Shown one piece after another: positions 22,660 through 47,041 of a stretch of 64,000 nt of DNA. This DNA is from an uncultured delta proteobacterium. Its GTDB lineage: Bacteria > Myxococcota_A > Polyangia > Fen-1088. The position numbers and the translations under genes are program-made. The stretch lies in contig CAVWIP010000012.1 in NCBI GenBank assembly GCA_963755125.1, positions 150,602 through 214,601 of the forward strand, in the 5' to 3' direction. The notes under the pieces were generated by a model. It saw nothing but the letters and a program-made list of their open reading frames with translations, searched no databases and had not been told where the DNA came from. Each line of letters opens with the position of its first letter. Within the stretch, counting starts at the first letter, position 1.

Positions 22660-24219
22660 CTAGCTCGCGATCTCGTCGGCCCTGAACTCGCGAATCACGG
22701 TCACCTTGATCTGGCCCGGGAAGGTCATCTCGCGCGAGATGCTTTCCGCGATCTGGGTTGACAGCAGCACCGCCCCTCGATCGTTCACCCGATTCTCGTC
22801 CACGTACACGCGCACCTCGCGTCCACCTTGCACCGCGAAGGCTTCGTCGACACCGGCAAAGGCGCGGCTGATGCGCTCGATCTCCTCCAGCTTGGCCATG
22901 TGATTGTCCTCGGCCTGCCGGCGCGCGCCCGGCCGTCCGCCCGACATGGCATCAGCCGCCGCGACCAGATACGCGTAGGCGCTATCGAACGGCTCATCGG
23001 TGTGATGCGCCCCGATGGCGTTGGCCACCACTTCCGGCTCTTTCAGTCGACGCGCATACTCCGCTCCGATGGAGGCGTGCGACCCGTCGAGTTCATGGGT
23101 CAGCGCCTTGCCTATGTCGTGCAGCAGCGCCGCCCGCCGGGCGAGCTTGACGTCCATCCCCAGCTCCGCCGCCATCATGCCGCACAGAAACCCCGCCTCA
23201 ACCGAGTGCTTCCACTGATTCTGTGCATAGCTGGTGCGGAAGTTGAGTCGGCCCACCAGCTTCACGATGTCGGGATGTGCGCGGTCGATGGCAAGCAGGG
23301 AAAACGCTCGTCGCCCCAGGTCGAGCGTCTCACGTTCCACGTCCACCACGATCCCGCGCGCCAGCCGTGTCACCGCGGCGGGTCCGCTGATGGATCGCTT
23401 CAACATGCGATTCACGCAGCGTCGGGCGATCTCCCGGCCCACCCCGTCGAGTCCCTCGATGCGGACCGCCGGTTGCCCGTCCAACAAGGAGAGCTGCACG
23501 TTGGTGACCGCCTCGATGGCACGCAAGTCAGCATCAACGGGTGGCACCTGTCCGGGCCGCAAGTCCGACAGGGGAATCACGAACTGGGGTCGCTCGGTCA
23601 AATCGTGGCCGGAAAAGCGACCCACCGCGATGCCCATGATTCTCTTGGCCGCGCGGATCTGGCTCCCCGACATAGCCGACTCCGCCATCTGGCGCAGCAT
23701 CTGTGCGGCAGCCGCGCGTGCGTCCTCGACCTCCGCTTCCACCAGCATCCGCTGCGCTTCTCGCGCAGGCCGGGCCGCCACCCGCTCCAACTCGGCTTGC
23801 CGGCTCCTTTCGATCGACTGCACCTCCGCTGTCAGAGCACGCCCGTCCTGCTCCCGCTCGGCCACCGGCGCCTCGCGTTCCGCAAGACGCTGGCGCGCCT
23901 CTCCCAGCAGTCGCACCTCCTCATCAATGCGCACCGCCTGAGCCGCAAGCGCAGTCTCGCTCTCCGCCAGCTCGGCTTCCCGTGCACGCAGGCCTGCCTC
24001 CACCTCGGACCGGATGGCCAGGGCCTGTTCGCGCGCCTGGATGTCCGACTCGCGCAGCAAGGCCTGCCCCTCGATCTCCGCCTCGCTGCGGATGCGCCTG
24101 GCCTCCCCGCCGTCGGGGTCGGCACCCGGCCGCCGCAGACGACGGCCCGCCCACATGCCGAAGCACGCGCCGGCCGCCAGTCCGACGAGCACCGTGATCC
24201 AGACGGCCGGCTCGCCCAT
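22660..24219 (-). CDS. rny: Ribonuclease Y
   Basis: N-terminal TM helix, a long coiled-coil, a KH domain (GREIARRCVNRML...) and an HD domain (LLHDIGKALTHE...GAHH). The start ATG at 24217-24219 abuts the stop of the upstream giant TPR gene at 24220-24222. Confidence 0.9.
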   Translation of the reverse strand: MGEPAVWITVLVGLAAGACFGMWAGRRLRRPGADPDGGEARRIRSEAEIEGQALLRESDIQAREQALAIRSEVEAGLRAREAELAESETALAAQAVRIDEEVRLLGEARQRLAEREAPVAEREQDGRALTAEVQSIERSRQAELERVAARPAREAQRMLVEAEVEDARAAAAQMLRQMAESAMSGSQIRAAKRIMGIAVGRFSGHDLTERPQFVIPLSDLRPGQVPPVDADLRAIEAVTNVQLSLLDGQPAVRIEGLDGVGREIARRCVNRMLKRSISGPAAVTRLARGIVVDVERETLDLGRRAFSLLAIDRAHPDIVKLVGRLNFRTSYAQNQWKHSVEAGFLCGMMAAELGMDVKLARRAALLHDIGKALTHELDGSHASIGAEYARRLKEPEVVANAIGAHHTDEPFDSAYAYLVAAADAMSGGRPGARRQAEDNHMAKLEEIERISRAFAGVDEAFAVQGGREVRVYVDENRVNDRGAVLLSTQIAESISREMTFPGQIKVTVIREFRADEIAS

Positions 24220-27200
24220 CTACCCGATCGCAAGTCCCAGGTGCGCGCGCAGGGCGAAGTATTCGTCCGACACGCACCACTGAATCAGGTCCCGAACCTT
24301 GTCCTTGGGATCGGCGCAGCCCACCGCCAAGGGCTCGGACTGGATCTGGTGGGCCGCCACCTCCAGGTCGTTGCACATGAGGAAGCCGGCCCGCGACGAG
24401 GTGAAGTCCACCGCCTTGGACCAGCGGTGCAGATCCGCCTCGGCCTGACTCTCGATGAAGCGCCGGACCACCTCGGCCAGCTGCTCGACGTTCTGGGGCG
24501 GAACCAGGCGGCGCAGAAGCTCCAGACGCTCCGCTACCGGTTGCTCCATGTCCGACTTGATGGGCACCTTGGGCTGCACCAGCTTGAGCGCCGCCAGGAA
24601 GTACGCCTTCAGTTCGGACACCTGGGGCACCACCGCCGGCCAGCGCACGACGTGATCGGGCCGCATCAGCGTCAGCTTCTTGCCCAAGGCGTAGGCCAAT
24701 TCCTTTTCCTGCTTGCCCTGCAACAAGGCAGCCCCGACCACGAAGGACGGGCAGAGTTGCTGCTTCTCGCGCGCGTTCATCAGCTCGAGCTCGCCCGGCC
24801 AATCCTGACGCAAGTACAGTTCAGGCGCTGTGACCGCAAGCGCCTGGCTCACGTAGACGAAGACGCCACTGAACATCAGCTTGTCGTTGGTGGGATCGCG
24901 CCGATCCCTGCGCCGAATTCCCACTTCCTTGTGCTCGCGGGCGCGCACCGCCATGATGGCCTGGCTGATGCTCGCCAGGATGAGCGAGATGTAGCGATCC
25001 TCATCGCCGTGGTAGATGTACTTCTGCCAGAGCTCCTCATTGAGCCGCGCCTTCACCCGGGACAGGGTCTTCACTTTGTACTGCTCGTGGAAGCGCAACT
25101 CCTCGGCATCGGCCTGGCGCAGATAGGCGAGCACCGAGGCCGTGCACCAGACCTGGTCGTACTTGCCCATGTCGGTAAACAGGTGCCGGAGTGTCTTGAG
25201 GATGGGCACCATCGCCCCGATGTCCTGCGTGCGCCTGAGGATCGCACGCCACGCGCGCACGGCCTTGTCGTAGGCTTCCGGCCCCTGCATTTGGTACAGT
25301 TCAGCCAAGATCTGGTGGCGCGGCATATTGTCGGGCTCCAGCTTCGCGCACACCTCGAACGCTTCAGCGGCGGCACGGTAGTCCTTGAGCCGTGAGCGGT
25401 AGATTTCGCCCAGCGCGTGCCACAGGGCGATCTGGGTCGACCGCTTCTCGGGCGGCACCTCGGTGCCCAGACGCTTGATCATGCGACGGTAGGCCCGCTG
25501 CTGGTTGGTCCAGTCCTTCTTCGCCGTCATGATCTTGTCGATGCGCTCGAAGGGCTTGAGGTCGTCGGGGTACTCGTCCAGCGCCTTGTTGAACAGCTCC
25601 ACCGCCTCATCGGGCGAGTGCAACTCGGCGTTGGTGATCTGGCCCGCCGTCTGCAGGTACTTGGCCTTGACCCGACCTGTCTCGATGGCTGCCAGGCGCA
25701 ACAGAATCTCCACCGCCTTCTTCCACTGCTTGGTTTCAGTGAGCAGCTCCAACACGTCGGCCAGCAGGCCGCGCGCATCGGGCTTGACCTCGATCGCCTC
25801 GAGATAGGCCGCGATGGCCTTCTGCGGGTTCTTCAACCGCTCCTTGTAGACCCCGATGATCTCCTCGTGCAGACGGAGCTTCTCTTCATCGCTCTCGACA
25901 TGTGCGAGCAAGGCCCGCTTCTGGCGAATCACCGCTTCCCAGTCTCCGGCGGCGGCGTGGATCTCGGTCAACGCCTCCAGCGTGGGGCGGTGGCCGGGAT
26001 CGATCTCCAACGCCTTCTCGAACATGTTGATGGCCTTGGCCCGGTCGCCGATCTTCGTCTTGATGTGGCCGATGCGATGGAAGATCTCCACGATCTGCGC
26101 TTCGCTCTGCGACTCGCGATGGTGAACCAGAATGGTCTGGTATAGCTTGAACGCTTCGTCCCACTGCTCGCGGCGATAGAGCAGATTGGCCCGGTCCACC
26201 AGGGTGGGCAGGTGGGTGGCGTCCAGTTCGTAAGCCGAGCGGTAGTATTTGAGCGCTTTCTCCTCGTCGCCCAGTTGCTCCGCCGCCTTGGCCAGGCGGT
26301 AGCACAAAATGTTGAGCTCGCGGTGAGCCCGACGATCCGCCTTGCGCGTCAGCATCTCCAGGATGGGCACCAGCGGCGCCCATTCACTCTGGCGGTAGTA
26401 GATGTCGGCCAGCGGGGTTGCGGCCTCGACGTGTTCCGGATCGAGTTCCAGGGTGCGCGCGTACAGTTCCTTGGCCTTGGCCTCGTCGCCCAGCTCGGTC
26501 TGGTAGAGCTTGCCGGCTTCGTAAAGGAGGCGGGTACGTTCCAGCACGTTGGGCGTGTGCGACTCGGCACGCTCCATGAACTGAGCCGCCTTGAAGGAGT
26601 CGCCGCGCCGCTTGTAGATGTTGAGCAGCGACAGCATGCTGGGCACGTGCGTCGGGTCGATGGCCAGGGCATCGCTCAGGCGTTCCTCGGCGATGTCCGA
26701 CATCTGCATCTGCTCGTCGAGTATCTTGCCCAGGCGGTAGCTCAGGTCGACCTTCTCGGGGGGCGAGGCTTGGCCCACCAGCCGCTGCATGATGTCCACC
26801 GCGCGCTCCCACTGCTCCGTCTCCTCGTACAGTCGCGCCAGCCCCCGCAAGGCCTCGGCGTGGTCGGGGTCCACATTGAGGATTTCGTTGAAAGCCTCGA
26901 TGGCACTGTCGGGATCGCGCAACCCTTCCTCGTACACCCGTCCCATGTCCAGGTAGATCGTAGCCTTGGCCGCCACATCGTTCTCCACCTGGATGTGCTT
27001 GCGGAAGGTGTCCACCAGCGCATCCCACTTGCGCTCGCCACGATAGAGACGTTCCAGATCCTGGCACGCCTTGAGATTGCGCGGATCGATGGTGAGCGCC
27101 TGCTGCAGGCTATCGATGGCATCGTCGATCTTGCCGGGAAGTTGCTCGCACACCTGCGCCATGCGCAGCAGGAGAGCGACCCGGTCATCGTCGGGCGCCG

Positions 27201-30200
27201 TGACCTGGAGCTGATGCTCCAGGACCTCGAGGTACGCGTCCATCCGGCCGGCCTTCTCGTACAACTGCTCCAGCGCCTTGAGCGCAGGCAGGTTTTGCGG
27301 ATCGACGGTCAGCACCTCCCTGTACGCCTGCACCGCCCGCTCGTTGTCGCCCAGGCGGGACTCCCACAGCTCGCCCACCTGCAGGCGTAGCTTGACCGCC
27401 AGCTCGCCGTCACTGACCACCTGTGACTTTCGCGCCAGCACGTCGGCCAGGCGCTCCCAGGCCTGGGTGCGCCGGTGCAGGCGTTCGAGGGCCTCGATGG
27501 CCTTCAGGCAATGCTCGTCAGCTTGCAGGGCCTGGTCGTAGGCCACCGTGGCCTGGCCCGCATCGCTGATGTGGGTCTCATAGGTTTCGGCCAACGCCAG
27601 CAACACTTCAACCCGTCGCGCCGGATCAGACTCGACTTCGGCGTGCTTGGACAGAACGCTGACCAGATCCTTCCAGCGGGACTCCTTGCGATAGAAGTCA
27701 GCCAGCGCCGCCATGGCGCCCACGTGGTTGGGCTGCCGCGAGAGAGCCTCCTTGGCGGAGGTGATGGCATATTCGGTGTGGTGCAGGGCCGAGTCGTACC
27801 AGCGTCCGATCTTGACCCACAAGTCGGCCGCCTGCTTCGCGTCCTCCATGCCCTGAGCGGCCTGTGTGTACTCGGACAGGAGCTCCGACCACTTGTTGGT
27901 GACGTTGGCCAGCCGTTCCAGTTCCTGAGCGACGGCGTTGCTCGAGTAGTCCTCACGGAACGCGGCCTGCAGCATGATGAAAGCGGAGTCTCGATCGCCG
28001 ATGTGCTCCTCGTAGATACGCGCAATCTCACAGAACAGCTTGATCTTCTCCTCCGCCTCACCGGTGTATTCCACCCGGGCCAACAGCAGCTCCACCAACT
28101 CAGGCCACACCTTACGCTGACGGTACACATCCTCCAAGGCCGATGAGGCTGCTGCATGCGAGGGGTCCATCTTCAAGACGCGCTCGTAGGCTTCAGCCGC
28201 CGCGCCGCCGTCGCCGATCTTCTCGGACCAGATGGACGCGATCTGCATCAACACATCCACCTTGTCACCCACCGATGCGAGCGCTGCCGCCCGGCGCTCC
28301 AGTACGTCCACACACTCCTCCCAGCGCCCCTCCTGGGTGAACAGCGTCTCCAGCGCCGTGAGAGCACGGGCATCAGCCGCATCGATCTGCAAGACATGGC
28401 GCCACGCCTCGATGGCCGCATCGACGCGCACCAAGGTGCTGCCTTCCAGTTCGCCGAGTTCCGCGTAGCAATCCCGCAGCGTGGCCGCCGGGAAGGTTTC
28501 GCTGCCCACGGCGATGAGTTGGTGCAAGGTTTCCGAGAGCTCTTCCCAGGCCGCGGCGCTCCGGTAGTTGGCTGCGATGGCCTGCAGCGCCTCGACGTCC
28601 CCGGGATTGATCTCGGTGACCTTCTTCCAGCACTCGAGGGCGTTTCTTTCCCGGCCGAGCTTCTCACCCCACACACGGCCCAAACGCTTGTACACCGGAA
28701 TGCGCGCCTCCGGGTCTTCGCTCGCTCGAATCTGGCTGTCCAAAACCTCCGTCAGCTCGCGCCACTCCTCGGCCTGCTCGTGCAGGTCGGCCAAAGCCGA
28801 CAGTGCCACCGGGTCAGCGCCGCGCAGGTCGAGCACCCGCCGCCACAACTCGATGGCCTTTTCACGCTGGCCGAGAACGTCGGACGTGATCCTGGCCATG
28901 CGCGCGTAGCAGTCGGAGAGCGCTTCGTCGCCCGGGGCGATGTCCAGCATCTTCTCGTAGATCTGGTACAGGTCTTCCCACTGCTCGGCGCGGAAGTAGA
29001 TGCGCTCCAATGCCTCGAGAGCTTCCGGCGAGCGCGACTCCTGTTCCAGCACCGCTAGATAGCTGGCCACCGCTCCCGGCGCGTCGTCGATGACGTCGGC
29101 CAGGATCTTGCCCAGACGCAGGTGCAGCGCGACCAGTTCCCTCGACCCGTCGGTGATGGCGATGCGCCGACGCAAGACATCTGCAAGTTTTTCGTAATCG
29201 CCTTGCTTGTCGTAAACCCGATCGAGGAAAGCCAGGGCTTCGCCGTCACTGGGGTCGAGCGCCAGCACCTGTCCCAGCACATCCTCGACCCGCACCAGAT
29301 CGGCAAGCTCGGCGTCGAAGACCGTGGCCAGGCGGAAGAGAACGTCGCGGCGCACGCGGCGATCGCTGGCCCGGGCCGCCGCGTCCGCCATGCTGGCCAC
29401 GTAGGTTTCCCACTGGTGGGTGGCGCGGGCCAAGCGTAGCAACTCATCCAATCCCTGCTCGGACGCCGGATCCTCGACCACCGCTTTCGACCACCACTCA
29501 AGCGCCGCCACCTGATCCATGAGCTTGGACTCGGAGATCTCCGCCAGCCGCCGCAGCAGCCGCTGTCGCTCCTCGGCGTCGGACTCCACGCCCAACTCGA
29601 CGTGATAGACTCGAACCAGCTTCTCCCACTCCTCGCCCACCCGGTAGAGCGGCTCAAGGACCTGCGCGATCTCCCGCTGCATGGCCCCGCTCGATAGCAG
29701 CCGCTCCAGCGTGGCACGGGTCTCGGCGTGCTTGGGATCGATGTTGAGGATGTCCTGATACGCCTCGACCGCCTTGGGCATGTCCCCCAGCGCCACTTCC
29801 AGGATCTGGGCCAGCCGGAAGGTGAGATCGATGATCTGAGCGTCGCTATCCGCCAGACGGATCTCGCCGCGGACGATGTCGGCCAGCTCCGTCCAGCGCT
29901 CGGTCCTGGTGTAAAGCCGGTCGAGTGCCTCGAGGCCGTCCTTGCGATCGGGCTCGGCATCGGCGACCCGCCGATAGGTCGCGATGGCCTTGTCGAGGTC
30001 ATGGGTTTCCTCCTCGTAGATGCGGGCCAGCCGCAGCAGCATCTCGGTCTGCAGCCGACTGTCCAGGATGCGGTCGATCTCGGCGTCGTACACCGCGGCC
30101 AGATCAGCCCAGCGGCCGCTCGACTCGGCCAAGCGGTCAATGTGGGCAATCACCTCCTGATTCGACGGGTCCACCCGCAGGGCGCGGCAGTAGGCATCAA

Positions 30201-33200
30201 ACGCCGCGTCGAAATCATTGAGCCGACGCTCGTGAATCTTGGCCAACAGGTCGAGCAACTCGACCCGTCGCACCGGATCCTGCGTGTAGGAAACCATTAC
30301 CTCGTGAACCGCGGCCACCTTGGGCCAGTCGCCTGCGCTTTCGTACACCGGTTGCAACACCTGGGCCGCCGCGATGGGCTCCTCCCCTCGCTGCATCATG
30401 CCTTCAAGAGCCTTCAGGGTCGGCTCGTGCGAGGGATCCATGGCCAACACGCGCTGATAGGCTTCCGTGGCCCGGCTCGCATCTTTGAGCTTGTCCGACC
30501 ACAGCTCACCGATGCGGTAGCGCAACGAAACCACCTCGGCCGAGGACGAAGACAGCTCGGTCTGGCGCTCGAGCACGTTGAGCAGGTCGTACCATCGCTC
30601 GGTCTGCAGGTAGAGGCGATCCAGGGCCTGCAGGGCATCCAGGTCATCCGGATCCATGTCGAGGATCGACGTGTAGGTTTCTATGGCGCGGGGAGCGTCT
30701 TGCAGTTCGCGGTCGTACACCTGGCCCAGCACGAAAAGCCGTTCCTTCTTTCGTGCCGGGTCCGTGGCCAACTCGGCCTGGCGGGCGTAGACATCCTTCA
30801 AGTCGTTCCAGCGCGACAGGCGCAAGAACAGCCGCACCAGGCTGTCCAGGGCCGTCTCGTTGGTGTCATCCAGGGCCAGGACCTGTCGGTAGACCTCGAT
30901 AGCCTTGTCGGAGTCGTCGAGGACTTCTTCCCAGATCTTGGCTGCGCGCGAGCCCAGCTCCTTCTTGTCGGCCAGCGCATCGACCATGTCCATCTTTCGC
31001 TGCAGCAGCAGAACCAACTGAGCGTAATCGGCGGTGCGGATGTAGATGGCCTCCAGCGCATCCGCCGCTTCCAGGTCGCGCGGTCCCACGGCCAGCGCCT
31101 GCTTGTAGGCCTCTGCCGCAATTTCGGAGTTGCCGAGCTCGTTCTCGGCCAGCTTCGCGACGGCGTGGTAGACGGCGCCCTTCAACTCGTCCGACTGCAA
31201 CTTCTCGGCGGCGGCTTGATAGCGGACCACTAGGTCGTCACACCGGCCGAGGGCCTTGGCCAGGCGTTCCAGGCGTCGGGTCGTCTCGGGATCGAGGGGA
31301 TCCTCGGCCAGCGCGCGCCCCAGAGCCTGGTACGCCCGTGCCGGATCGTCGAGCCCGTCCTCGCAGGCCGTGGCGATCTCGTGCAAGAGGTCAATCTTGC
31401 GCCGCATGTCCAGGGCGTGGCGTGCCTGGATCTCCAGCACCCGTACCAGGTTGCCAAAGTCGCTGCGCGCACGGTACACCGGGTCCAGGATCTCGGCCAG
31501 AACCAGATCGTGGTCGGGGTTGTCGAGCAGTCCTTCCAGCGCCGCCACGGTTTCTTCGTGGCCAGGCGCCAAGTCGAGCAGTCGTCGATACGTCTCCACT
31601 GCGGACGTGATGTCGCGCAGCTTCTGTTCCCGCAGGTGCCCGAGACGAGAAAGCAGGCGTACCTGCTCCTCCTCGTTGCTCGCCAGCTCGAGCTGTCGCT
31701 GCAGGTTGTCCGCCAGATCGAGGTCCAATCCCTTGTGCACGAAGAGACGATCGAGCGCGCGCAGGGCGGTCAGGCTGCCCGCGTTGTCACCCAGCGCCTC
31801 CTTCCACGCGGCAATCGCCTCGTCGGGATTGCCGATGGCCTCTTCCCATATGGCAGCGATGCGAGCGTGAATCTGCTCGCGCTCCTCGCTAGAGCGGACC
31901 AGCTCCACCTTCTTCTTCAGGGTGTCGACCAGATCGGACCAACGCTCGGTCCGCGTATACAGTCGTTCCAGGGCTTCGAGCGCGGAGGCGTCTTCCGGTT
32001 CGATCTCCTGGGCCAGGCGGAAGTACTCGACCGCCTTGTCTGATTGGTCGAGCTTCTCGTCGTAGGCCACCGCGATGACCAGCAAAATCTCGCGCTCCAA
32101 CCCGGACGCGAGCTTGCGACTTCCCTGGATTTCGCTGTACAGGGCCACCAACTCCCGCCACTTGTCCATGCGATCAGCCAGCGCTTCCAACGCCGCGCGC
32201 GCCTCGGCCGAGTCGGGACTTATGCCGAAAGCCTCGGCATAGGCCTGGTACGCCCGTTCAGCGCGGCCAGCCTCGCCTTCCAACCCGCCGATGCGCAAGA
32301 GCAGGGCGACCCGGGCCGCGGCATCCGTCTCGCGCGCCAACTTGATACGCTGAACCTGCAGCAACCGCTCCGTCTCGTGTCCCGCCTCGTAGATGGGCTC
32401 GAGGGCCGCCACCGCGCTCATCTGGTGCTGACTGTCGGCAAGATAGACTTCCAGAGCTGCACGCGCGCCTGCATGGGTCGCGTCCAGCGCCAGTGCCTCC
32501 TGATACGACTCCACGGCAACGCCCGGACTCTTCAGGTACTTCTCGGAGACCTCGCCCAGCCGGAACTTCAACTCGGCCGCAGCCGGGTCGTCATTGGGCA
32601 GCTTGAGCTGGCGGACGATGATCTTGCTCAGATCCTTCCAGCGCTCCGTGGCCCGATACAGCCGGTCCAGCGCGCGCAGGGCTTGCACGTCTTCCTTGGC
32701 CGTCTTCAGGATGTCCTTGTACAACTCGATCGCCTTGTCGGCGTCGTGCACCTGTTCTTCGTAGAGCGCCGCGAGCTGCAGTCGCACCTCGCGCTTCTCA
32801 TCCTCGGAGCCGGCCAGAGCGAGTTTCTTGTCGTAGATGGCTAACAACTGGTCGTGCTGGCCGGTTGCAATGTACAGGCGTTCGAGGGCGAGCACGGCCT
32901 GCTCGTCGCGGTCCACGATCTCCAGGATCTCGCGGTTGCGCGCAATCGCCGCCTCGCTGTTGGCCAGCTCCTTCTCGTAGGCTCGCGCCACGGTAGCCAA
33001 GAGGGGAAGACCATCTTGTCCCTGCAGGCTTGGCAGGACGGCCTCGTAGGCTTCCACCAGCAGCGCCCAGTTGCCCGTCTCGCCAGCCAACCGCTCGGCG
33101 TACTCGCGCGCCCATTCCTCACGCGGATTCTCCGACAGCGCCTGCAACGCCACGGTAAGCGCCAGCGGCCTGTCGCCGGCGTCGCTCTCGAGGATTTGGG

Positions 33201-34605: not shown

Positions 34606-34935
34606 TTGGTCCTCCGGGATGAATAAGGCAATCGCAGGATCGCGACCGCATGCTCCTGGCCGCTCCTTGGGGAGAGGCTAAGACCGCGGAAAATGGAGCA
34701 TTTTATACCACGCTGGCCGCTTTGCACACAACGGGAATGAGCCCCATTTTCTCGTCGGTGCGGGCCTTTTCAACCGCCGTGAGGGCCCCCGCCACGCCTC
34801 CCTGTGCCTACCCGCGGCCGGGCCACCGGGCAGACCTTTCCAAGATCAGGCTGTGCACCCACTCGGAGCGATCGGTGGTGGTCGGCACGAAAACGACCAC
34901 GACCTTCTGCGGCTATCGCGGGATTCGCTTCAAAC

Positions 34936-35823
34936 CTACGGGCCGCTCAGGGCATAGAGCTTGTCGCTCGCGGCCCGCAGGAAGCCAAACGCCGATCCGT
35001 CCTTGCCTCCGCCGGTTGCCACGAACTTCTGCAGATAGTCGCGCGCCTGTTCCTTCTGCTCGTTGGCGTGCGATTCCTCGTACCATTCGGCGTAGGTCAT
35101 ACCGCAGTTGTAAAGGGCGTCGAAGAGTCCGCTGTCCACGTCGAGCGCCTTCTTGAACTCGGCCACCGCTTGCTCGTACTGCTTGAGTGACTTGAGAGCC
35201 ACGCCGTGGAGGTTGTAGCACTCGGCACTGTTGTCGTTGGCCCGCACGCACTCCGCAAGAACCTGCGCGGCCTCTTTGTCGGCGTCATAGTCGAGGTAAA
35301 GCCGGCCCAGCGCGATGAACGGCTTGTCCATCCGGGGGTTGAGCTCGATGGCGTTGCGCAGAGCCTGGTCGGCCTCCTTGGGACGCTCTTGAAAAAGGTA
35401 CACCAAGCCTAGACGCCACTGAGCCTTGAACAGCTTGGGGTCTAGTTCCGTCGCCTTCTTGAGCGCGGTTTCCGCCTTGTCCAGCTGTTTCGCCTCAAGA
35501 TAGGCTTCGCCCAGGTCGTACTGGAAGTTGGCGTTGCTCGGGCTTCGTTGGGCCGCTCCCTCGAACGCATCGATGGCTTTGTCCCACTTGCGCTGCTTCT
35601 GATAGACCTTGCCCAAGTTGTAATAGGCCATCTCGTAGGTGGGGTCAGTCTGAATGGCCAGCCTCAACTCACGCTCGGCCGAGTCGTAGAGGTTGGTCTT
35701 GAATGCCTCGACACCCTTGTTTGCGATCTCGATGGCTTTGATGCGCTGCTGGCTGCAAACGAATGCATCGCAGGCCGGCAGAATCAACCCGAGGACGAAC
35801 ATAGCTTTCAGATAGCGACCCAT
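34936..35823 (-). CDS. gltH: TPR-repeat lipoprotein, GltH-like
   Basis: Lipobox MGRYLKAMFVLGLILPAC followed by about 6 TPR units. It lies between the gltG-like and gltI-like genes. Confidence 0.6.
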   Translation of the reverse strand: MGRYLKAMFVLGLILPACDAFVCSQQRIKAIEIANKGVEAFKTNLYDSAERELRLAIQTDPTYEMAYYNLGKVYQKQRKWDKAIDAFEGAAQRSPSNANFQYDLGEAYLEAKQLDKAETALKKATELDPKLFKAQWRLGLVYLFQERPKEADQALRNAIELNPRMDKPFIALGRLYLDYDADKEAAQVLAECVRANDNSAECYNLHGVALKSLKQYEQAVAEFKKALDVDSGLFDALYNCGMTYAEWYEESHANEQKEQARDYLQKFVATGGGKDGSAFGFLRAASDKLYALSGP

Positions 35824-35854
35824 CGCGGCTCCTTCCCTTGTCGAATGGCGAGCG

Positions 35855-38065: not shown

Positions 38066-38157
38066 TTGGGTCTCCTCCGGTTACGGCAGGCGGGGGCCAG
38101 CGGCGGCCACGCCTATGCTCTCGACCCTTGCCCTCTGGGTCTTGCGACCCCGAGCGG

Positions 38158-38406
38158 CTAGATGTCTTCGAGCGACTTGAGCATTTCGGGAATGAAGTCT
38201 TTGCGGATTTCGATAAGGCTGGAGTGTTTGGCTTTGTTGATGGCGTTCACCAATTCGCCATCAGGCCGCTGCAGGTCGCCCTCGACGTTGTCGTCTTCGA
38301 AATCGTAGACGGTCTTGGACTTGAACTGCTCGGCCCCACCTTCTTGAGCCAGAACCGTACCCAGTCCCCCGACGGTGAGAACCGCAATCATTGCCATGAG
38401 TCGCAT
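38158..38406 (-). CDS. gltF: Small secreted protein (82 aa), GltF-like by position
   Basis: Signal peptide MRLMAMIAVLTVGGLGTVLAQEG. The assignment rests on size and synteny only. The start was trimmed from the ORF-track start at 38496. Confidence 0.45.
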   Translation of the reverse strand: MRLMAMIAVLTVGGLGTVLAQEGGAEQFKSKTVYDFEDDNVEGDLQRPDGELVNAINKAKHSSLIEIRKDFIPEMLKSLEDI

Positions 38407-38529
38407 CGGTTCATTTCCTTCCTTCGGCTGCGCTGGGAGACAAGCACGGAAAGCTCGCCTCCTACTGACAACCAAGATCGAATTTGGTTCCCACAATTAT
38501 GGATCGGATTCGATCGACGAAGCTCCGCG

Positions 38530-40419
38530 TCACTCCCAGTTCTTCTTCTCAGGTTTCTTCGGCGCCGCTTTCTTCGCGTCATCCGGCTTGTCGCCGGGAT
38601 TAGCTGGGGCGGCCTCGGGCGCCGCTCCAGCGGGCGGGGGTTCGACCGAAGATCCGGGAACTGGGGCCTGGCTCTCGGCGCCCTTGTCATCGGCACCCTT
38701 GCTCTCGGTGCCCTTGTCGTCGGCCTTGCCACCGCCGGTGACCTTCTTCGTCTTCTCCTCTTCCTTTTTCGTCTTTTCCTCCGCGGCCTTCGTCTTGTCC
38801 TCCTCCTCCTTCTTCTTCATCTCCTCCTGCTGGCGCTTCTCCTCGGCCTCCATCTTCTTCATCTCTTCTTCCATCTTCTTCTGCTGCGCCTCTGCCTTGC
38901 GCTGCATCTCCTCAGCCTCTTTCATCATCTTGGCCGCTTCCTCCAGTGCCACGAAAACCTCATCGATGTCCTTGATGCGCTTCTCGGCGTCCTTGCGTGC
39001 CTTGGGCGAGGGAGACCGCGTCAGGAAATCCCGATAGTATGCTTGGGCCTTTTGCAGCATGGGCTTGTCGCTGCCGCCCTTGTACTCTTGGTACAGCAGG
39101 CCGAGGTTGAAATAGGCATCCGGGCGCTGTGGGTCGAGATTCCGGGCCTCGTTGTACTTCTGTTCTGCCTCGTCGAACTTCTTGTTGCCGCGCAAGGCGA
39201 CCCCCAGCCCAATGATCGCCTCGTAGTTGCGCGGCTTGGCCTTGAGCACAGCTCTCAAGTTCTCTTCCGCGATGTCGTAGTTGCGAAATTTCAGTGAAAC
39301 CGCGGCCAGATTGAGCCGGGCCTCGAACAGCCCGGGATCATTTTCTACCGCGGCGGTGAAGTTCTTGATCGCGTCCGTGTAGTTCTTCTTGGCCAGGTAG
39401 ATCATGCCCATCGTGTTGTAGACCACGGCCACGGCCTTCTTCATCTCGACCGTGTAGCCCGTTCCCTCCACGGGAGTCTCCTGGGCCGTCTTCTCCCCCT
39501 CCTTTTCCTTGGCCTCTTCTTTCTTGCCCTTGCCTTTCTTGGCCTTCTTGTTCGCATCGTCGGAAACCGCCCCCTCTTCCTCGAACTTTCCCGTGGCGAT
39601 TTCCTCTGCCCGCTTGATCGCCTGGGCACCCACCAGTTTGGCTGCCTCGGGCAGATCCAAATCGTAGTAAATAAAGCAAAGGCCTGCGTAGGCCTGCAGG
39701 CTGTTCCCGTCAAGTGCGAGCACGCGTCGCAGTTCCTTCACAGCGCCGTCGTTGAGCGCCTTCTTGTCGGTGCCGGTCGCGAGACGGGCACGTTCACGGT
39801 AAATCTGGGCCATGTTGATGCGGGCGGCGATGGACCCGATCAAGGGATCAGCCTGAATCGAGCGCTTGAAGAGCGACTCCGCGTCGGCCTTGTTCCCGCC
39901 CTGCCAGGCCACGTAGCCCAAATTCGCCAAGGCAGGAGCAAAGGGCTTGGCTCCGCCAGCCAGCTTCTCCCAGATGCGGACGGCCTCGTCCTTCTTGCCA
40001 CACTCAAGATCCACCGCAGCTTCGTTGCTGCGCGCCTCGAGAAGCACGGGCACCCGGTCTGCGATCTTCCTGAAACCCGAAGCTACCGACGAACATTCCG
40101 GGCCGGGAACGGATCCCGCCTTCTTGGCTTTCATGTATTCAGCGACAGCCTTGTCGTAGGCAGCTCTGTCGTCCTCGCTGATCTGGCGCTCTGTCGGTTT
40201 CCGGGTAATGAGGGGAACCTCCCCGGGACTGGCGGCGGCCGGCGCTGCAGCAGGGGTCGGCTTCTTGCCGGGCGTCCACTCCTCCTCGTCGGGCAGTGCG
40301 CCGGTTTCTGGACTCTTGGGCTTACCGGCTGTCGCGCAGCCAATGGACAGGGCAAGCAAGGCTCCGACCCCGACCAGGGTCCAAGACGAGCACACTCCGA
40401 GACTTCGATGCGTCATCAT
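38530..40419 (-). CDS. gltE: TPR lipoprotein with a Lys/Glu-rich coiled-coil tail, GltE/AglT-like
   Basis: Lipobox LALSIGC, TPR units, and a C-terminal EEMQRKAEAQQKKMEEEMKKMEAEEKRQQEEMKKKEEEDK low-complexity tail. Confidence 0.6.
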   Translation of the reverse strand: MMTHRSLGVCSSWTLVGVGALLALSIGCATAGKPKSPETGALPDEEEWTPGKKPTPAAAPAAASPGEVPLITRKPTERQISEDDRAAYDKAVAEYMKAKKAGSVPGPECSSVASGFRKIADRVPVLLEARSNEAAVDLECGKKDEAVRIWEKLAGGAKPFAPALANLGYVAWQGGNKADAESLFKRSIQADPLIGSIAARINMAQIYRERARLATGTDKKALNDGAVKELRRVLALDGNSLQAYAGLCFIYYDLDLPEAAKLVGAQAIKRAEEIATGKFEEEGAVSDDANKKAKKGKGKKEEAKEKEGEKTAQETPVEGTGYTVEMKKAVAVVYNTMGMIYLAKKNYTDAIKNFTAAVENDPGLFEARLNLAAVSLKFRNYDIAEENLRAVLKAKPRNYEAIIGLGVALRGNKKFDEAEQKYNEARNLDPQRPDAYFNLGLLYQEYKGGSDKPMLQKAQAYYRDFLTRSPSPKARKDAEKRIKDIDEVFVALEEAAKMMKEAEEMQRKAEAQQKKMEEEMKKMEAEEKRQQEEMKKKEEEDKTKAAEEKTKKEEEKTKKVTGGGKADDKGTESKGADDKGAESQAPVPGSSVEPPPAGAAPEAAPANPGDKPDDAKKAAPKKPEKKNWE

Positions 40420-40428
40420 CGCTGGCTC

Positions 40429-43400
40429 CTACTCCTTGGAAGTGACCTGGAGATCGTCGGGCAGTTCCGCGACGACACCGCCGGGCGTAATGGGTGTCGA
40501 GACGTAACCGGGCTCCGGCTTCATCTCGGCCGAGAGGGGGTACTCGGCGGGCTTCATCTGGTTGAGCTCCACCTCGCACATGCTCGACCATTCATTGTAC
40601 CAGGACTCCTTGGTGGCGGCCTTGAGGCACAGATCGTAGCCAACCACGGCCTTCGATTCGATGGGCTCAGCCTTGTCGACGAGAGCGTCGCAGAAGATCT
40701 CGCGGGGCCGGTTGCCCCACTCGTCCTGCTCCTTGAGATCCTTGGGGATATCCGCCGTGTAGAGCTGGTTGACGAAATCCGCGTAGACCTGCCCGATGCG
40801 CGCCGAGGCCGCGATCGTCCAGTGCGCCACGTGGTAGTCGAGCACGAAGTCATACAGGCCCTTCTTGTCCGCGCTGGGGCCCGTCAATTTCTCGGCCAGG
40901 GCCGTCTTCTCGGTCATGTACGCAAGGAACTTCTTGCTCGACTCCTCGTACTTCTTCTTCTTGGCCGCCGCGACCTTCGGCTTGTCCCACTGGGTGGGCT
41001 GCTGGAAGTCCAGGCCCGACGGGAACTTCACCCGCAGGAACTTCTCGTAGAGCTCTTCAGCCTGGTAGAAGGCCGCGCCGGCCACGGCGAAGCGGGCAAT
41101 CGCCTCCCGCGCTGTCCGCTCACCCGCACTGGCGCCGGGAATCTTCTTCGCCGCCTCGCCGTGATTCCACAGCTTGAGGACATCTTTGAAGTGCTCCAGG
41201 CCATCCTTGGCGTATTTGGAGCTGCGCTCGAAGACGGTGATCTTCGAGCTGGTGGGCGGACCGCACTGGGTGCGCAGCTTCTCCTTCAGCTTCTTCTTCT
41301 TGTCTTTGATCTTGGAATTGATCTCGGCAAAGACCTTCTGCCGGCCGGTGGCGCTCACGCGCTCGACCTTGATGCAGGCGCCGTTGACGCCTTCCTGCGG
41401 ACAGGAACGCTTCCATGCGATCTCGCCCAACTTGAAGTGGGCGAGAATCTGCTTGTCCACGCCACCCTTGGCGCCCCATTTCTTCAGGTACTCAGTCAGG
41501 TGCTTGACCAGATCGTCGGTCTTGCTTTGCTTTTCGTACACCTCGCTCATCTGGAACACGACGTTGGCCGCATCCTGTGAATCGCGCGTCCCGTAGTACT
41601 TGACGAAGGCGTTCATGTCGTCGACTGCCTTCTCGAACTCGCCCAGCCCGATGCGGAAGGTATAGGCATTACCCAGAGCGGTCCGCGACTGCTTCTCGCC
41701 CGAGAACTTGGTGGCGAACTCCTCGTAGCGCCGGGCTGCCTCGCTGTAGTAGGCGAGCTGGTGATAGCCGCTGGCAATTTGGAAGAGAGCCCGCTGCGCC
41801 AAGGGATCCTTCGGGTGCTTTTCGATCAGCTCCTGGCGCGCCCTGATGGCCTGGCCGACCAGACGCGCGTTCTGGAAACAAAGGCCAGCATTGTAGAGAC
41901 GCTCGGCGTGCTTGGGGTGGTCGGGAATGGTTTCCGCGGCGGCCACGTACGAGATGCCACACTCCTTGTAATTCTTCTCCTTCTCGTATTGCTTGGCTTC
42001 CACCACCAGGCTGTCGGTCTTGAGACCAATCATCTGCTTCTTGAATTCCTGGTCCTTCATGAGGACGGCATTGCCCAGGAACTTCTCAACCGTGGCGAGC
42101 AGCTCCTTGTACTTGCCCATGATGTTGAGACAGTCGAGCAGCAAGTTGGCCGAGTAGATCGCCAACTCGTCGGTCACGTGCTTGTCGACGATGTCCCTGA
42201 ACAGACCCACCGCATCTTCAAAGTGATTGTAGTCGTAGTAGATTCTCGCTTTTCGGTACTTGATCTTCACCAACTCCGGCGCGTCGGGCACGTACTTGAT
42301 GTAGGTGTCGAAGGCCGCGATCATCTTCTGCTGTCCGGCCGGGATCGGGCGCGGCTTCATGTCCTTGTGCTCTTTCTCGGGCATCGCCCCTTCGTCGTTG
42401 ATGTTGAGCGCGTTCTTCCAACCCAGCACCGCTGCATAGGCCGCCTCTTTCACGTACTTTCCCTTGGGGTCCAACTGGACCACCTTGGTATAGGTTTCGG
42501 CGGCCTCGGCCCACTGCTCGGTCACCCACAGAATTTCGCCGAAGAAGAAGGTCATCTCGGGGGTGTCCTTCTCATTGTTGAAGTGATCCAGGTACTCCTT
42601 GTAGATGAGGCGGGTGAGCTGATAGGTGTCGGCGTTCTTGGTCCGTTGCGCTTCCTTGTGCCAGATGAGGGCGAGTTCCTTGGTGGTGTCGTGATAGTTG
42701 TTCTTGCACTCGGTCATCACGTCCTTCTTCACACCCTCCACTTTCGCCATGTGCTCGTAGATCGTGCCGAGGCGCTTGACCTCCTGCACCTGATCCCGCT
42801 TGCTGCCCGAGGACAGGGTGTTACGCAGGATCTTGTATTGCCACTCACACAGGCGCGGTGACTTCTCGTTGAGCGAGATGATCTTGCGGTAAACCTTCGA
42901 TGAGTCGGCGAACATGCCTTGTTCCCAGTACAGCTCGGCCAGTGCCTCCAACATCTTGGGGGCATAGTCTCCACCCATGCGCTGGAAGAACTCCCAGGCC
43001 TTTTCCGGGGACGCTCCCGGGGTTCGCGCGTAGGCCTTGACCAGATCCTTCTTGGCCTCTTTCTCCAAGGGACCGCTTTGGCTCTTGGGGATCTTGCCCG
43101 CCTGACAAAGCTCGATCACGTTGACGAAGATGCCCAGCGCCGACTTGAAGTTGCCCAGGTTGATCTGCGCCCAGCCCTTCTTGTACACGGCGAATCCGTA
43201 GACCGACGACTTGGGGAACTGCTCCACCTTCTCGTAGAACTTGAGCGCGTTCTCCATCTCGCCCTTGCCAAAGAAGTATTCGGCAAAGGACAGGTAAGCG
43301 TTGGGGACGTACTTCGACTGTGGGTAGTCCTTGATGAGGCGGTGGAAGAACTCCCGGGCCTTGTCGTCCTTCTTGATCATCTGCAACAGATAGGCGAGGC

Positions 43401-43965
43401 GGAACAACACCTCGTCCATGCGCTCGTACTTCGGGTGCTTGGACGCCTCCACGTAGTCCTTGACCGCCTCGTTGGCCCACTTCTCGGCCGCCTTCTCGTT
43501 GTCCTGCTGGTCCTTCTTCAGCTTCGCGGCGAGAGAAGTGTTCTTCTTCTGCTCGGCTTGGAAGATCTTCTCGTCGAAGCTGCGTGCCTGCAAGCTGTTG
43601 AAGCGCTGCTTTTCGGCATAGAGCTCGCCCAGCCGGAAATAGAAGTCGGCCTTCTGCGGGTCGTCGTTGGGCGTAATCTTGATGAGTCGGTTGAGCTGGG
43701 AGATCTGCTTGTCGGTGATCTGTTGAATCTTCGCCTGCTGCTGACCGACGAACTGTTCCACCGTCAGAACCGGCCCGGTCTGTTTCTGCTCCTTGGGCGG
43801 CTCCTTTGGTTTCGTCAGCTCGGTCTGGGCCGCGCCCTGGACCTCCAGTTCCTTCTTCTTGTACTTCGCGTCAGCGAAAGCCGTCCCCAAGCCTGCCACC
43901 ATGCTGACGAGGACGATGCCGAGCGAGGCACCGCGTATGGAACGTCGTTGATCCTTCATGTTCAT
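40429..43965 (-). CDS. gltD: Large secreted TPR-domain protein (1178 aa), GltD/AgmU-like
   Basis: Signal peptide MNMKDQRRSIRGASLGIVLVSMVAGLGTAFA with TPR units throughout. It is strongly Lys-rich, which locally lowers the GC content. It is the first Glt-like gene of the block. Confidence 0.65.
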   Translation of the reverse strand: MNMKDQRRSIRGASLGIVLVSMVAGLGTAFADAKYKKKELEVQGAAQTELTKPKEPPKEQKQTGPVLTVEQFVGQQQAKIQQITDKQISQLNRLIKITPNDDPQKADFYFRLGELYAEKQRFNSLQARSFDEKIFQAEQKKNTSLAAKLKKDQQDNEKAAEKWANEAVKDYVEASKHPKYERMDEVLFRLAYLLQMIKKDDKAREFFHRLIKDYPQSKYVPNAYLSFAEYFFGKGEMENALKFYEKVEQFPKSSVYGFAVYKKGWAQINLGNFKSALGIFVNVIELCQAGKIPKSQSGPLEKEAKKDLVKAYARTPGASPEKAWEFFQRMGGDYAPKMLEALAELYWEQGMFADSSKVYRKIISLNEKSPRLCEWQYKILRNTLSSGSKRDQVQEVKRLGTIYEHMAKVEGVKKDVMTECKNNYHDTTKELALIWHKEAQRTKNADTYQLTRLIYKEYLDHFNNEKDTPEMTFFFGEILWVTEQWAEAAETYTKVVQLDPKGKYVKEAAYAAVLGWKNALNINDEGAMPEKEHKDMKPRPIPAGQQKMIAAFDTYIKYVPDAPELVKIKYRKARIYYDYNHFEDAVGLFRDIVDKHVTDELAIYSANLLLDCLNIMGKYKELLATVEKFLGNAVLMKDQEFKKQMIGLKTDSLVVEAKQYEKEKNYKECGISYVAAAETIPDHPKHAERLYNAGLCFQNARLVGQAIRARQELIEKHPKDPLAQRALFQIASGYHQLAYYSEAARRYEEFATKFSGEKQSRTALGNAYTFRIGLGEFEKAVDDMNAFVKYYGTRDSQDAANVVFQMSEVYEKQSKTDDLVKHLTEYLKKWGAKGGVDKQILAHFKLGEIAWKRSCPQEGVNGACIKVERVSATGRQKVFAEINSKIKDKKKKLKEKLRTQCGPPTSSKITVFERSSKYAKDGLEHFKDVLKLWNHGEAAKKIPGASAGERTAREAIARFAVAGAAFYQAEELYEKFLRVKFPSGLDFQQPTQWDKPKVAAAKKKKYEESSKKFLAYMTEKTALAEKLTGPSADKKGLYDFVLDYHVAHWTIAASARIGQVYADFVNQLYTADIPKDLKEQDEWGNRPREIFCDALVDKAEPIESKAVVGYDLCLKAATKESWYNEWSSMCEVELNQMKPAEYPLSAEMKPEPGYVSTPITPGGVVAELPDDLQVTSKE

Positions 43966-43993
43966 TTCCCTTGCTTAGCTGATCTGGGTCCGG

Positions 43994-45742
43994 TCAGGGC
44001 GTCTCGCCCGCCGGTGCCGATTCCGGCGCGGGCGCTTCGGCCGGCGTTTCGCCGCCTTCTGGCACAGGAGCCCCTTCTCCACCACTGGCCGGCGCCCCTT
44101 CGGGTCCCGCGCTTCCATGCACACACTTGTTCAGGAGCTTGTACCGGTAGTAGCCGAGTTCATCGCGCCAATACTCCCCCAGGAACGGCCAGAACTCGTG
44201 TTCGTCATCGATACGGACGTTGCTGATGTCCTTGGCGCGGCCGGCACCGCCAGTCATTGTCTCAGCCTTGACGTCCTCTTCCAACTGGCCCTTTTCACCC
44301 TGGAGAATCTCGTACTCGATCTTGATCACGCGGGTTATGAGCTGGCGAAACTCATTCACCAGGCGTTCGACGCGCTTGCGAGCGATTTCGCCGGTTTCAT
44401 TGACGGCCAAGGCGCGGGTCACGCCGATTTCGGAATAGATGGTCGTGGCCACCGCGGTGCTCTTCCACGCGGCATCGGCCTTCTCATGCTGAATCAGCTC
44501 GCGGTCGAGTTCTCGTATGGCGTCGAAGCGCCGGACCAGGCTGCGGTCAGACATGACCGCTCGCGCCGCCCGTTCAACCGCCGGAGGCAGTCCCGATCTG
44601 CCACTGCGAATCTTCACCGCCAGATCATAGAACTGATCGTTGGCGGTGTGGCTGGCCAGTGCCTGGGCCAGGCCTTCCGCCACCTGGGGCACCCAGTCGT
44701 TAAACTCCTGGATGGCACTGGCGGCCCGGTCGAAGAGGCAATTATAGAAATAGATGGTCGCCTTGACTGTCAAAGCCTCGGCCACTGACTCTGGCTTGAT
44801 GAAGTACTCGAAGAACGGGGCGCGCAGGGTGTGAATGTTGCCAAGTGCCTTTGAATACCCCTGTTGCTTGAGCATGAAGTTGGCCCACGATGCCTCGAAC
44901 AGACTGTTGGGCCAGTCATACGACTCGGGTGAAACCCGATCGAAGTACTTGGTCGCCATCTCGAACTGGCCGGTGGAATAGAAGACCCGAGCGAGGGAGA
45001 GATTGGCCAGATCCTGGAAGGGCTTGACCTTCGGATCCTGACTCTCCTCGGCAGCCCGCAGCACCGCTTTGAACGCGTCGACCGCCGGCTTCGCGGCATA
45101 TTCACGCACGTGGGTCGCGCCTTCGAACAGCTTGGCCTGCGGGTAGAACGCACTCTTGGCCGGCACCAAGTTGAAAAGCGAAACGGCTTCCTGGAACTTG
45201 CCCTTATTGTAGTTGTACTTGCCCAATAGGAAGTACAGCTCGTCGCGCACCGCCTCGAGCTGCGGGGCTTCCAGTTCCTGTCGGTTGTACTTGCCGATCT
45301 TCTCCAGGACGGCGGCGGAATCCACCGGCTGATGGGTGAGCGAAGCCAGCCACTGCAGGGTTTCATTGTAGTGGGGATGGGCAGGACCCTTCTGCACAAC
45401 GCGATCGAAGTAACTCAACGCTGCCGAAAAGAACTTCAGCTTGAACAGCGTCTTGCCCATCATGAACTCGGCCCGCATTCTCGCGTCCACGCCCGCCTCG
45501 CCCTCGATGGCCTTGTTGAACTCAATGGAGGCCATGTAGTAGTCACCGCGCTGGTAGAACTTCTCAGCGCGCTCGAGCGCGGGCGACGGCTCACCCGCTG
45601 ACTTGGGGTTCGATTGCGTATCGGCCGCGGGCGTGGCGGCGGCCGGCTTGTTCTTCTTCCGTCTTTGCGCCCAGGCATCGGACGTCACCGTCAGGGTGAG
45701 GGCGAGAAGCAGGAACAATGCACAACCCTTTTCACGGCTCAT
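43994..45742 (-). CDS. Secreted TPR-containing protein (583 aa), an additional putative Glt-associated periplasmic component
   Basis: Signal peptide MSREKGCALFLLLALTLTVTSDAWA, TPR-like repeats, and an Ala/Pro/Glu-rich C-terminal tail. It is co-directional and 28 bp upstream of the gltD-like gene. Confidence 0.55.
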   Translation of the reverse strand: MSREKGCALFLLLALTLTVTSDAWAQRRKKNKPAAATPAADTQSNPKSAGEPSPALERAEKFYQRGDYYMASIEFNKAIEGEAGVDARMRAEFMMGKTLFKLKFFSAALSYFDRVVQKGPAHPHYNETLQWLASLTHQPVDSAAVLEKIGKYNRQELEAPQLEAVRDELYFLLGKYNYNKGKFQEAVSLFNLVPAKSAFYPQAKLFEGATHVREYAAKPAVDAFKAVLRAAEESQDPKVKPFQDLANLSLARVFYSTGQFEMATKYFDRVSPESYDWPNSLFEASWANFMLKQQGYSKALGNIHTLRAPFFEYFIKPESVAEALTVKATIYFYNCLFDRAASAIQEFNDWVPQVAEGLAQALASHTANDQFYDLAVKIRSGRSGLPPAVERAARAVMSDRSLVRRFDAIRELDRELIQHEKADAAWKSTAVATTIYSEIGVTRALAVNETGEIARKRVERLVNEFRQLITRVIKIEYEILQGEKGQLEEDVKAETMTGGAGRAKDISNVRIDDEHEFWPFLGEYWRDELGYYRYKLLNKCVHGSAGPEGAPASGGEGAPVPEGGETPAEAPAPESAPAGETP

Positions 45743-46658: not shown

Positions 46659-47041
46659 ATGGGTGCCCGCGCAACGCGGGACGCGCGGCGGTTGGTGCAC
46701 GCGCCGAGGCTCTGGCTGCCGCCCTGCTGGAAGCGCGTGGCTATCGCATCGTCGAGCGAAACTGGCGCCGCCCCCAGGGAGAATTGGACTTGGTGGCGGA
46801 ATATCGAGGCATCCTTGTCTTCGTCGAGGTCCGCTCGCGCACGGGTGAGGAACGCGGGCATCCTCTTGAAACGGTGAATGCTCGCAAGCGAGCCCGCGTC
46901 GTGCGCGCCGCTCGCCTGTACCTGGAAGACAACCAGCCCACTGCTACGGCATTCCGTTTCGATGTCGTAGGGGTGACCTTCGCTTGCGACGGGGCTCCGC
47001 CCACAATGACTCACGTGGAAGACGCGTTTCGCGTGGGTTGA
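46659..47041 (+). CDS. yraN: YraN-family (UPF0102) endonuclease. The 5' end is disrupted by an apparent single-base frameshift.
   Basis: Frame 2 encodes ...GARAEALAAALLEARGYRIVERNWRRPQGELDLVAEYRGILVFVEVRSRTGE...RFDVVGV, the YraN signature. The only upstream ATG (46659, MGARATRDARRL) is in frame 0. Restoring one G in ttgg(g)tgca gives MGARATRDARRLGARAEALAAALLEARGY..., a complete 128-aa YraN. Confidence 0.6.

Follow-up and report, generated by a model that had tools for sequence, protein, structure and literature searches.

A run of eight consecutive open reading frames (ORFs) in a 64-kb window of the genome of an uncultured member of the Polyangia (Myxococcota) probably codes for three modules of a trans-envelope complex of the Agl-Glt type, arranged in the gene order of Sorangium cellulosum. 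The run occupies positions 22660 to 45742 (all coordinates are window positions) and lies entirely on the minus strand. It comprises homologues of gltC, gltE, gltF and gltG, a gltD-like gene, a gene for a tetratricopeptide repeat (TPR) lipoprotein, a gene for a GltI-like TPR giant, and rny, the gene for RNase Y. A function in gliding is proposed by analogy with Myxococcus xanthus. A first-pass annotation had described a gltD-E-F-G-H-I block with an additional TPR gene and with rny directly downstream, and devoid of gltJ and gltK; its eight ORFs were recovered at the same coordinates and with the same sizes. The G+C content of the window is 57 to 68% in 2-kb steps, and the third-codon-position G+C of the large ORFs ranges from 0.76 to 0.86. 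An Rfam scan of the whole window gave zero matches.

Four of the predicted proteins were matched by NCBIfam models of Glt proteins, with scores that are all below the equivalog cut-offs and hence denote homology, not equivalog status. The GltC model (NF033756) matched the product of the first gene with 293 bits (E = 4e-87, cut-off 450), residues 30 to 541 being aligned to positions 99 to 620 of the 622-position profile. This protein, which carries a signal peptide ending in SDAWA/Q, is the one that had been taken for an additional secreted TPR protein; it is instead a GltC homologue, and its position is that of sce2914 and Hoch_2490 in Table S3 of Luciano 2011, and also that in the related contigs L085 and L086. 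The GltE model (NF033758) matched the larger lipoprotein (lipobox LSIGC) with 110 bits (E = 1.6e-31, cut-off 225), and the model for CglF, which is GltF (NF033764), matched the small secreted protein, which has a signal peptide, with 81.5 bits (E = 3.4e-23, cut-off 90) over positions 25 to 88 of 88. For the GltG model (NF033760), the score was 412 bits (E = 3e-123, cut-off 650). The same protein contains an N-terminal FHA domain (Pfam, 64 bits) and an AgmX/PglI-type tail, the latter with 107 bits in the model NF033768 (myxo_SS_tail), above its cut-off of 40. Judged from sequence, the homology of these four proteins to GltC, GltE, GltF and GltG is clear.

Localizations were assigned by reading the translations for signal peptides and lipoboxes and by a hydropathy scan, and the first-pass descriptions of secreted, lipoprotein, lysine/glutamate (K/E)-tailed and small secreted products fit this reading. 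In the GltG-like protein, the hydropathy scan revealed hydrophobic segments at residues 220 to 250, 272 to 295, and 408 to 432. The last of these aligns with the single transmembrane (TM) helix of the M. xanthus protein, and the first two are predicted as two extra spans; as far as hydropathy indicates, the overall orientation is preserved in this three-span topology.

The GltD-like protein was assigned by synteny and architecture. It has a signal peptide, TPR matches from about residue 100 to 730, and a non-TPR helical C-terminal part, and its size and its place between GltC and GltE agree with those of M. xanthus GltD (1191 aa) and of sce2915; the library scans yielded no match to a GltD-specific model. 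GltD (AgmU) is described as secreted and approximately 1200 aa long, its TPR domain lying centrally between non-TPR helical domains.

Table 1. Features of the locus in the 64-kb window
Feature	Position	Strand	Basis
GltC homologue, secreted TPR protein, 582 aa from ATG	43994-45742	-	NCBIfam NF033756 and signal peptide
GltD (AgmU)-like secreted TPR protein, 1178 aa	40429-43965	-	synteny and architecture
GltE (AglT)-like TPR lipoprotein with K/E-rich tail, 629 aa	38530-40419	-	NCBIfam NF033758 and lipobox
GltF/CglF-like small secreted protein, 82 aa	38158-38406	-	NCBIfam NF033764 and signal peptide
GltG (PglI)-like inner-membrane protein, 736 aa	35855-38065	-	NCBIfam NF033760 and NF033768, Pfam FHA
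TPR lipoprotein in the "gltH position," 296 aa	34936-35826	-	TPR families and lipobox
Promoter-like element upstream of the giant	34676-34741	-	alignment with seven relatives
GltI (AgmK)-like cytoplasmic TPR giant, 3461 aa	24220-34605	-	architecture, collinearity, synteny
Predicted M48-like zincin fold without HExxH (putative pseudo-peptidase), last 281 aa of the giant	24223-25065	-	predicted model
rny (RNase Y), 519 aa	22660-24219	-	TIGR03319, Pfam RNase_Y_N and HD
Small lipoprotein with weak AgmX/PglI-type C-terminal domain	20701-21339	-	NF033768

The gene that follows gltG had been labeled gltH. In M. xanthus, GltH is a 209-aa outer-membrane β-barrel (Luciano 2011, Table 1; PMC11761067), and the label does not hold for the ORF found here, which encodes a TPR lipoprotein (lipobox ILPAC). 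Its Pfam matches are to TPR families only, the GltE model scores 54.7 bits and the Tgl model 45 bits, and scans of the window ORFs revealed no β-barrel candidate. This lipoprotein is best read as a GltE-like paralogue, with Haliangium Hoch_5625 as its nearest counterpart. Hoch_5625, likewise a TPR protein of 296 aa, is located near GltG and GltF homologues and is scored as a GltE homologue in Table S3 (Luciano 2011). A TPR lipoprotein gene lies directly 5′ of the giant gene in 45 of 47 genomes whose giant C terminus is at least 50% identical to that of the window, in none of 7 at 44 to 49% identity, and also in L085 and L086. The conserved neighbor of gltG and gltI in this clade is thus the 296-aa TPR lipoprotein, not the β-barrel GltH.

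A signal peptide is absent from the giant. TPR families cover it to about residue 3150, and the remaining approximately 300 aa form a non-TPR domain; no Glt-specific model matched in the library scans. A search with its last 460 aa retrieved 2804 representative proteins at E ≤ 1e-3. Among the best 150 matches were 33 giants of 3136 to 4166 aa, of which 28 are collinear with the window giant over approximately 3250 to 3600 aa at 28 to 58% identity. Among ten representatives that were looked up, one giant of the collinear family came from Lujinxingia litoralis and another from a Myxococcales metagenome-assembled genome (MAG); Nannocystis pusilla was also among the matches (no contig on record). 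The best 120 matches of a protein homologue search were close relatives, none longer than about 1400 aa. The protein occupies the position of sce2920/21, which are listed as MXAN_4863 homologues in Table S3 (Luciano 2011), and the published description of GltI is that of a long TPR protein whose C-terminal domain is large and helical (PMC11761067). In agreement with the first-pass annotation, the giant is therefore regarded as a cytoplasmic GltI-like protein and as a member of this collinear family.

When the last 281 aa of the giant were modeled alone, the predicted structure adopted an M48-like zincin fold. A longer model of the C-terminal 455 aa had been compared with the PDB, and there TPR matches swamped the result. 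At the sequence level, no Pfam family matched the domain. The HExxH motif of M48 zinc metallopeptidases is absent; in each of the 17 giants that were inspected, the site reads [Y/F]xx[G/A/S][K/R], so that canonical zinc binding is not expected. According to the model, GltI-type giants would end in an M48-like pseudo-peptidase domain, which differs from M48 peptidases such as BepA, Ste24/ZMPSTE24, and HtpX by the loss of HExxH and from BepA also by a reversed domain order. Such a domain would give a concrete fold to the "large helical C-terminal domain" of GltI. Many proteins of approximately 1.0 to 1.9 kaa share the TPR and pseudo-M48 C terminus of the giant. In a Kofleriaceae MAG (L003, positions 10001 to 13720), a short TPR plus pseudo-M48 protein is encoded alone, away from glt genes and rny.

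To place the locus among relatives, genome contigs were searched with a profile built from an alignment of giant C termini. Of the 492 loci matched, the best 80 were examined; these represent species-level genomes, all from uncultured Polyangia. The C terminus of the window giant is about 95% identical to those of several MAGs named "Myxococcales bacterium fen_". The order trmD, rplS, yraN, a small divergent gene, gltC-D-E-F-G, the TPR lipoprotein gene, and the giant gene is shared with the contigs of L085 and L086 (about 1 Mb), and the glt order recurs there as well as in the genomes of the related species. Since the gene order is conserved in relatives, the block is not a chance arrangement. 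Most of the Pfam matches in the block are to generic TPR families, and the GltD-like protein and the giant have no specific model match, as would be the case if this were an unrelated run of TPR genes that resembles a glt cluster by size and repeats only. We consider this explanation extremely improbable, since the GltC, GltF, and GltG models are matched over most of their length, the GltE model matches as well, the GltG-like protein has the FHA plus AgmX/PglI architecture, and the conserved order is that of the published Sorangium Glt cluster. The designation as a Glt-type block stands for GltC, GltE, GltF, and GltG on the basis of models; for GltD and GltI it is probable from synteny and architecture, and it fails for gltH.

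The genes from gltC to the TPR lipoprotein gene are separated by gaps of 9 to 123 nt, whereas a gap of 330 nt (34606 to 34935) precedes the giant gene. An alignment of this spacer from the window and seven relatives revealed one sharply conserved block in an otherwise diverged spacer. This block consists of TTGTGT, 18 nt, TGG-TATAAA, and then a conserved leader, CCATTTTCCGCGG; the invariant columns of the alignment span TTCCCGTTGT, TGGTATAAAA, and CCATTTTCCGCGG, and also CCGGAGGAnCAnGTGGG. A conserved Shine-Dalgarno sequence (GGAGGA) and the GTG start codon of the giant are located at 34617 to 34603. In L013, L017, and L085, our own reading of the alignment suggests a hairpin followed by a T run, i.e., a terminator-like element, after the TPR lipoprotein gene. 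For M. xanthus, it has likewise been proposed that an insertion upstream of agmK affects the promoter of that gene (Luciano 2011, Text S1). The conserved block is read as a promoter-like element, suggesting that the giant gene has its own promoter. Given this element, the giant gene and rny probably form a transcription unit of their own, apart from gltC-G.

The last gene of the run encodes an ordinary full-length RNase Y, as judged by its N-terminal membrane helix (residues 4 to 25), RNase_Y_N domain (Pfam, 74 bits), and HD domain (68 bits). The model TIGR03319 (RNase_Y) matched with 398 bits (E = 5e-119, cut-off 454), residues 8 to 518 aligning end to end with positions 2 to 513 of 514; a KH region was not separately detected by Pfam at E ≤ 0.01. 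The N-terminal helix, RNase_Y_N, and HD are the same as in Bacillus subtilis Rny, the difference being that the score of the protein described here is below the equivalog cut-off. The sequence at the junction, ...GCG ATC GGG TAG ATG GGC GAG..., confirms that the stop codon of the giant and the ATG of rny are contiguous and in frame, with 0 nt between them. Spacing is also 0 nt in the closest group of relatives and in L081, and in most others it lies between -1 and about 100 nt. Because of this variable spacing, and with the frame being common to only about half of the relatives, the TAG-ATG arrangement was rejected as a programmed read-through or fusion.

With no spacer before rny and with synonymous-site conservation not raised in the last 450 codons of the giant, the simplest and most likely interpretation is that rny is co-transcribed with the giant gene, possibly with translational coupling. 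The unraised conservation gives no sign of an internal rny promoter, and a consensus scan of the 3′ end of the giant gene likewise found no promoter-like site, both being weak negatives. The proposal of the first-pass annotation that RNase Y is co-transcribed with the motility scaffold can thus be retained, as probable, for the giant, but not for gltC-G, from which the pair is separated by the promoter-like spacer.

Among genomes with sufficient downstream sequence, rny is the next gene on the same strand after the giant in 53 of 57 with at least 50% identity in the giant C terminus and in 0 of 12 with 44 to 49% identity. In L002, the giant-rny pair occurs without glt genes upstream, and the same holds upstream of L044 and L067. 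The position of rny behind the giant in most of the related species appears to be an undescribed feature of the locus: no description of rny directly behind a 10.4-kb TPR gene was found in the searchable literature, and nothing relevant was found on RNase Y in myxobacteria.

A conserved pair of this kind raises the question of whether the two products are partners in function, in the sense that the pseudo-peptidase-ended giant scaffolds or localizes RNase Y or couples mRNA turnover to the envelope complex. Such a partnership would fit the persistence of the pair at short spacing in the 53 genomes and in the three lineages devoid of upstream glt genes, its own conserved promoter-like element, and the expected location of both proteins on the cytoplasmic side of the inner membrane. 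It is nevertheless quite unlikely. The 12 distant genomes encode the same giant without rny next to it and, in most of those checked, have a 265-aa ORF and a hydantoinase-like gene in that place, in Cystobacterineae it is gltJ that follows gltI (Luciano 2011), and the RNase Y of the window looks ordinary. Moreover, the partnership is argued from synteny, and neutral synteny within one clade would give the same conserved order. Even less credence is given to the specific form of the idea in which a GltI-like scaffold with a dead M48-like domain recruits or regulates the membrane-anchored RNase Y and thereby connects mRNA decay with the gliding complex at its cytoplasmic face. The adjacency most likely reflects lineage-specific synteny rather than a motility function, and the data lend no support to a functional connection of RNase Y with motility.

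For the Glt-type complex itself, roles can be proposed by analogy with the M. xanthus model (PMC11761067; Luciano 2011). GltD, GltE, GltF, and GltC would form a periplasmic connector reaching the outer-membrane GltA/B platform, and the periplasmic module would also include the extra GltE-like TPR lipoprotein. GltG would serve as a TonB-like inner-membrane link energized by the TolQR-like AglRQS motor, and the giant as a cytoplasmic scaffold that binds or organizes several GltG FHA domains. The genes aglRQS and gltA/B would be expected at other places in the genome, as is the case in Sorangium and Myxococcus; they are unlinked to this block in both M. xanthus and Sorangium (Luciano 2011).

Several observations weigh against the assignment to an Agl-Glt-type complex. 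No genes for the AglRQS motor or for GltA, GltB, GltK, or CglB were found in the window scans, and the organism is uncultured, gliding being a deduction. All four NCBIfam Glt scores are below the equivalog cut-offs, the orthology of the GltD-like protein and of the giant to M. xanthus GltD and GltI is deduced from synteny and architecture, and the co-transcription of rny is read from sequence. In addition, linkage of the giant to glt genes is looser than its linkage to rny in some lineages (L002, L044, and L067).

The low scores and the missing motor and outer-membrane adhesin platform would also be compatible with a Glt-like paralogue that has a non-motility envelope function, comparable to the Nfs system of spore coat assembly or to the uncharacterized clusters G4 and G5 of M. 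xanthus. The paralogous clusters of myxobacteria are not interchangeable, and Sorangium and Haliangium each have at least two clusters (Luciano 2011). We regard this explanation as unlikely, though the most serious of those considered. Low model scores are expected at class-level divergence, and the gene order matches that of the Sorangium cluster with the GltI homologues (Luciano 2011, Table S3). GltF and GltI have been assigned to "Group A," the Myxococcales-specific parts, and Nfs is without I, J, and K (Luciano 2011); the presence of GltF and of a GltI-type giant therefore favors a Glt rather than an Nfs type.

The first-pass annotation had noted the lack of gltJ beside the giant gene, and this was corroborated: the 64-kb window contains no GltJ-like ORF (zinc ribbon [ZnR]-GYF-TM-TonB-C), and none was found downstream of the giant in the best 80 of the 492 related loci. 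Pfam and NCBIfam scans of most of the other large window ORFs gave no GYF, zinc-ribbon, or GltJ match, and a tblastn search of the window with the GltG tail gave only one weak match, in a small lipoprotein gene (lipobox LAWSGAGC) that scores 22.8 bits with NF033768 (E = 7e-5, cut-off 40). This gene is located downstream of rny and of a convergent ROK kinase gene, and its homologues are placed equivalently in about 20 related loci. As a substitute for GltJ it was rejected, its weak AgmX/PglI tail being unaccompanied by ZnR, GYF, or TM parts; on sequence grounds, its membership in the Glt system is uncertain. In most of the checked distant genomes with 44 to 49% identity, the giant gene is followed by a conserved ORF of about 265 aa, which matched no family, and then by a gene for a hydantoinase/caprolactamase-alpha-like protein. 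The ORFs of about 650 to 725 aa found downstream of the giant in this clade have the size of GltJ and were rejected as GltJ candidates because they are hydantoinase/caprolactamase-alpha-like. The clade is represented by L071 to L078 and L082, and in L078 and L082 the hydantoinase-like gene comes directly after the giant gene.

Other genes of the window were recorded as well. On the plus strand, a YraN (UPF0102)-like ORF was recognized by eye at 46784 to 47041; the corresponding UPF0102 gene of L085 and L086 (Pfam) shares its strand with trmD-rplS and the glt genes, and the plus-strand ORF may be due to a small local inversion or may be a mis-read ORF. On the minus strand, a gene for a 2877-aa multidomain synthase with KS, AT, ACP, KR, and DH domains (9184 to 17817), which from its domain order may be a polyunsaturated fatty acid (PUFA)-type or polyketide synthase, adjoins a 4′-phosphopantetheinyl transferase gene on the same strand (8440 to 9180). 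A 593-aa protein (49996 to 51777, plus strand) matched the model of a UshA-like (seleno)protein with 219 bits (cut-off 275) and carries a multihaem cytochrome c region at its C terminus. The gene at 59937 to 61565 (plus strand) encodes a response regulator that contains GAF and HD-GYP-type (HD_5) domains; it adjoins the gene for a large protein (61745 to 64000, minus strand) in which "choice-of-anchor D"/Ig-like domains are repeated and which runs off the window end.

The closest published counterpart of the locus is the cluster sce2914 to sce2921 of S. cellulosum So ce56, as given in Table S3 of Luciano 2011: sce2914 (C), sce2915 (D), sce2916 (E), sce2917 (F), and sce2918 (G) are followed by the unlisted sce2919 and by sce2920 and sce2921, both GltI. 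Compared by this table, the order is the same as in the window, namely, C-D-E-F-G, one gene, and I; the listed lengths are 568 aa for GltC, 1289 aa for GltD, 497 aa for GltE, 90 aa for GltF, 681 aa for GltG, and 1774 plus 2081 aa for GltI. The Sorangium GltI homologue is thus split into two entries, whereas the window contains a single uninterrupted ORF. For Sorangium and Haliangium, the table gives no homologue of GltJ, GltH, or GltK, and among its accessible parts GltJ homologues are given for Anaeromyxobacter and Stigmatella (Cystobacterineae) only; gltK and gltH were acquired more recently (Luciano 2011, main text). Since the order has been published for S. cellulosum in 2011, the genes that had been flagged as missing or extra reflect a known organization, and the lack of J, K, and H is not an anomaly. 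GltJ, GltH, and GltK are regarded as additions of the Cystobacterineae that are not expected in this lineage, and gltK would not belong in the block in any case, being a gene of cluster G2.

In M. xanthus, cluster G1 consists of gltD-E-F-G-H followed by gltI-gltJ, and cluster G2 of gltK-B-A-C (Luciano 2011). The sizes, predicted localizations, and domains of C, D, E, F, G, and I agree between M. xanthus and the window, and in both the giant gene apparently has its own promoter region. The differences concern gltC, which is part of G2 in M. xanthus but joined to gltD in the window; the position of the β-barrel GltH, occupied here by the TPR lipoprotein; and the position after gltI, where gltJ is replaced by rny. 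Furthermore, the GltG of the window has two extra predicted membrane segments and its GltE a long K/E tail. The Nfs cluster (nfsA-H) shares with the window a contiguous block of C-D-E-F-G homologues, but it has A/B upstream and H downstream and no GltI-type giant, whereas the window has the giant and its scans gave no A, B, or H candidates. The main effect of these comparisons is to correct the record on features that had been flagged as unusual. Beyond this, a conserved and probably co-transcribed gltI-rny pair in one clade and the predicted pseudo-M48 end of the giant are modest new details, and with this locus the lineages known to carry Glt clusters now include an uncultured one of the Polyangia from peat.

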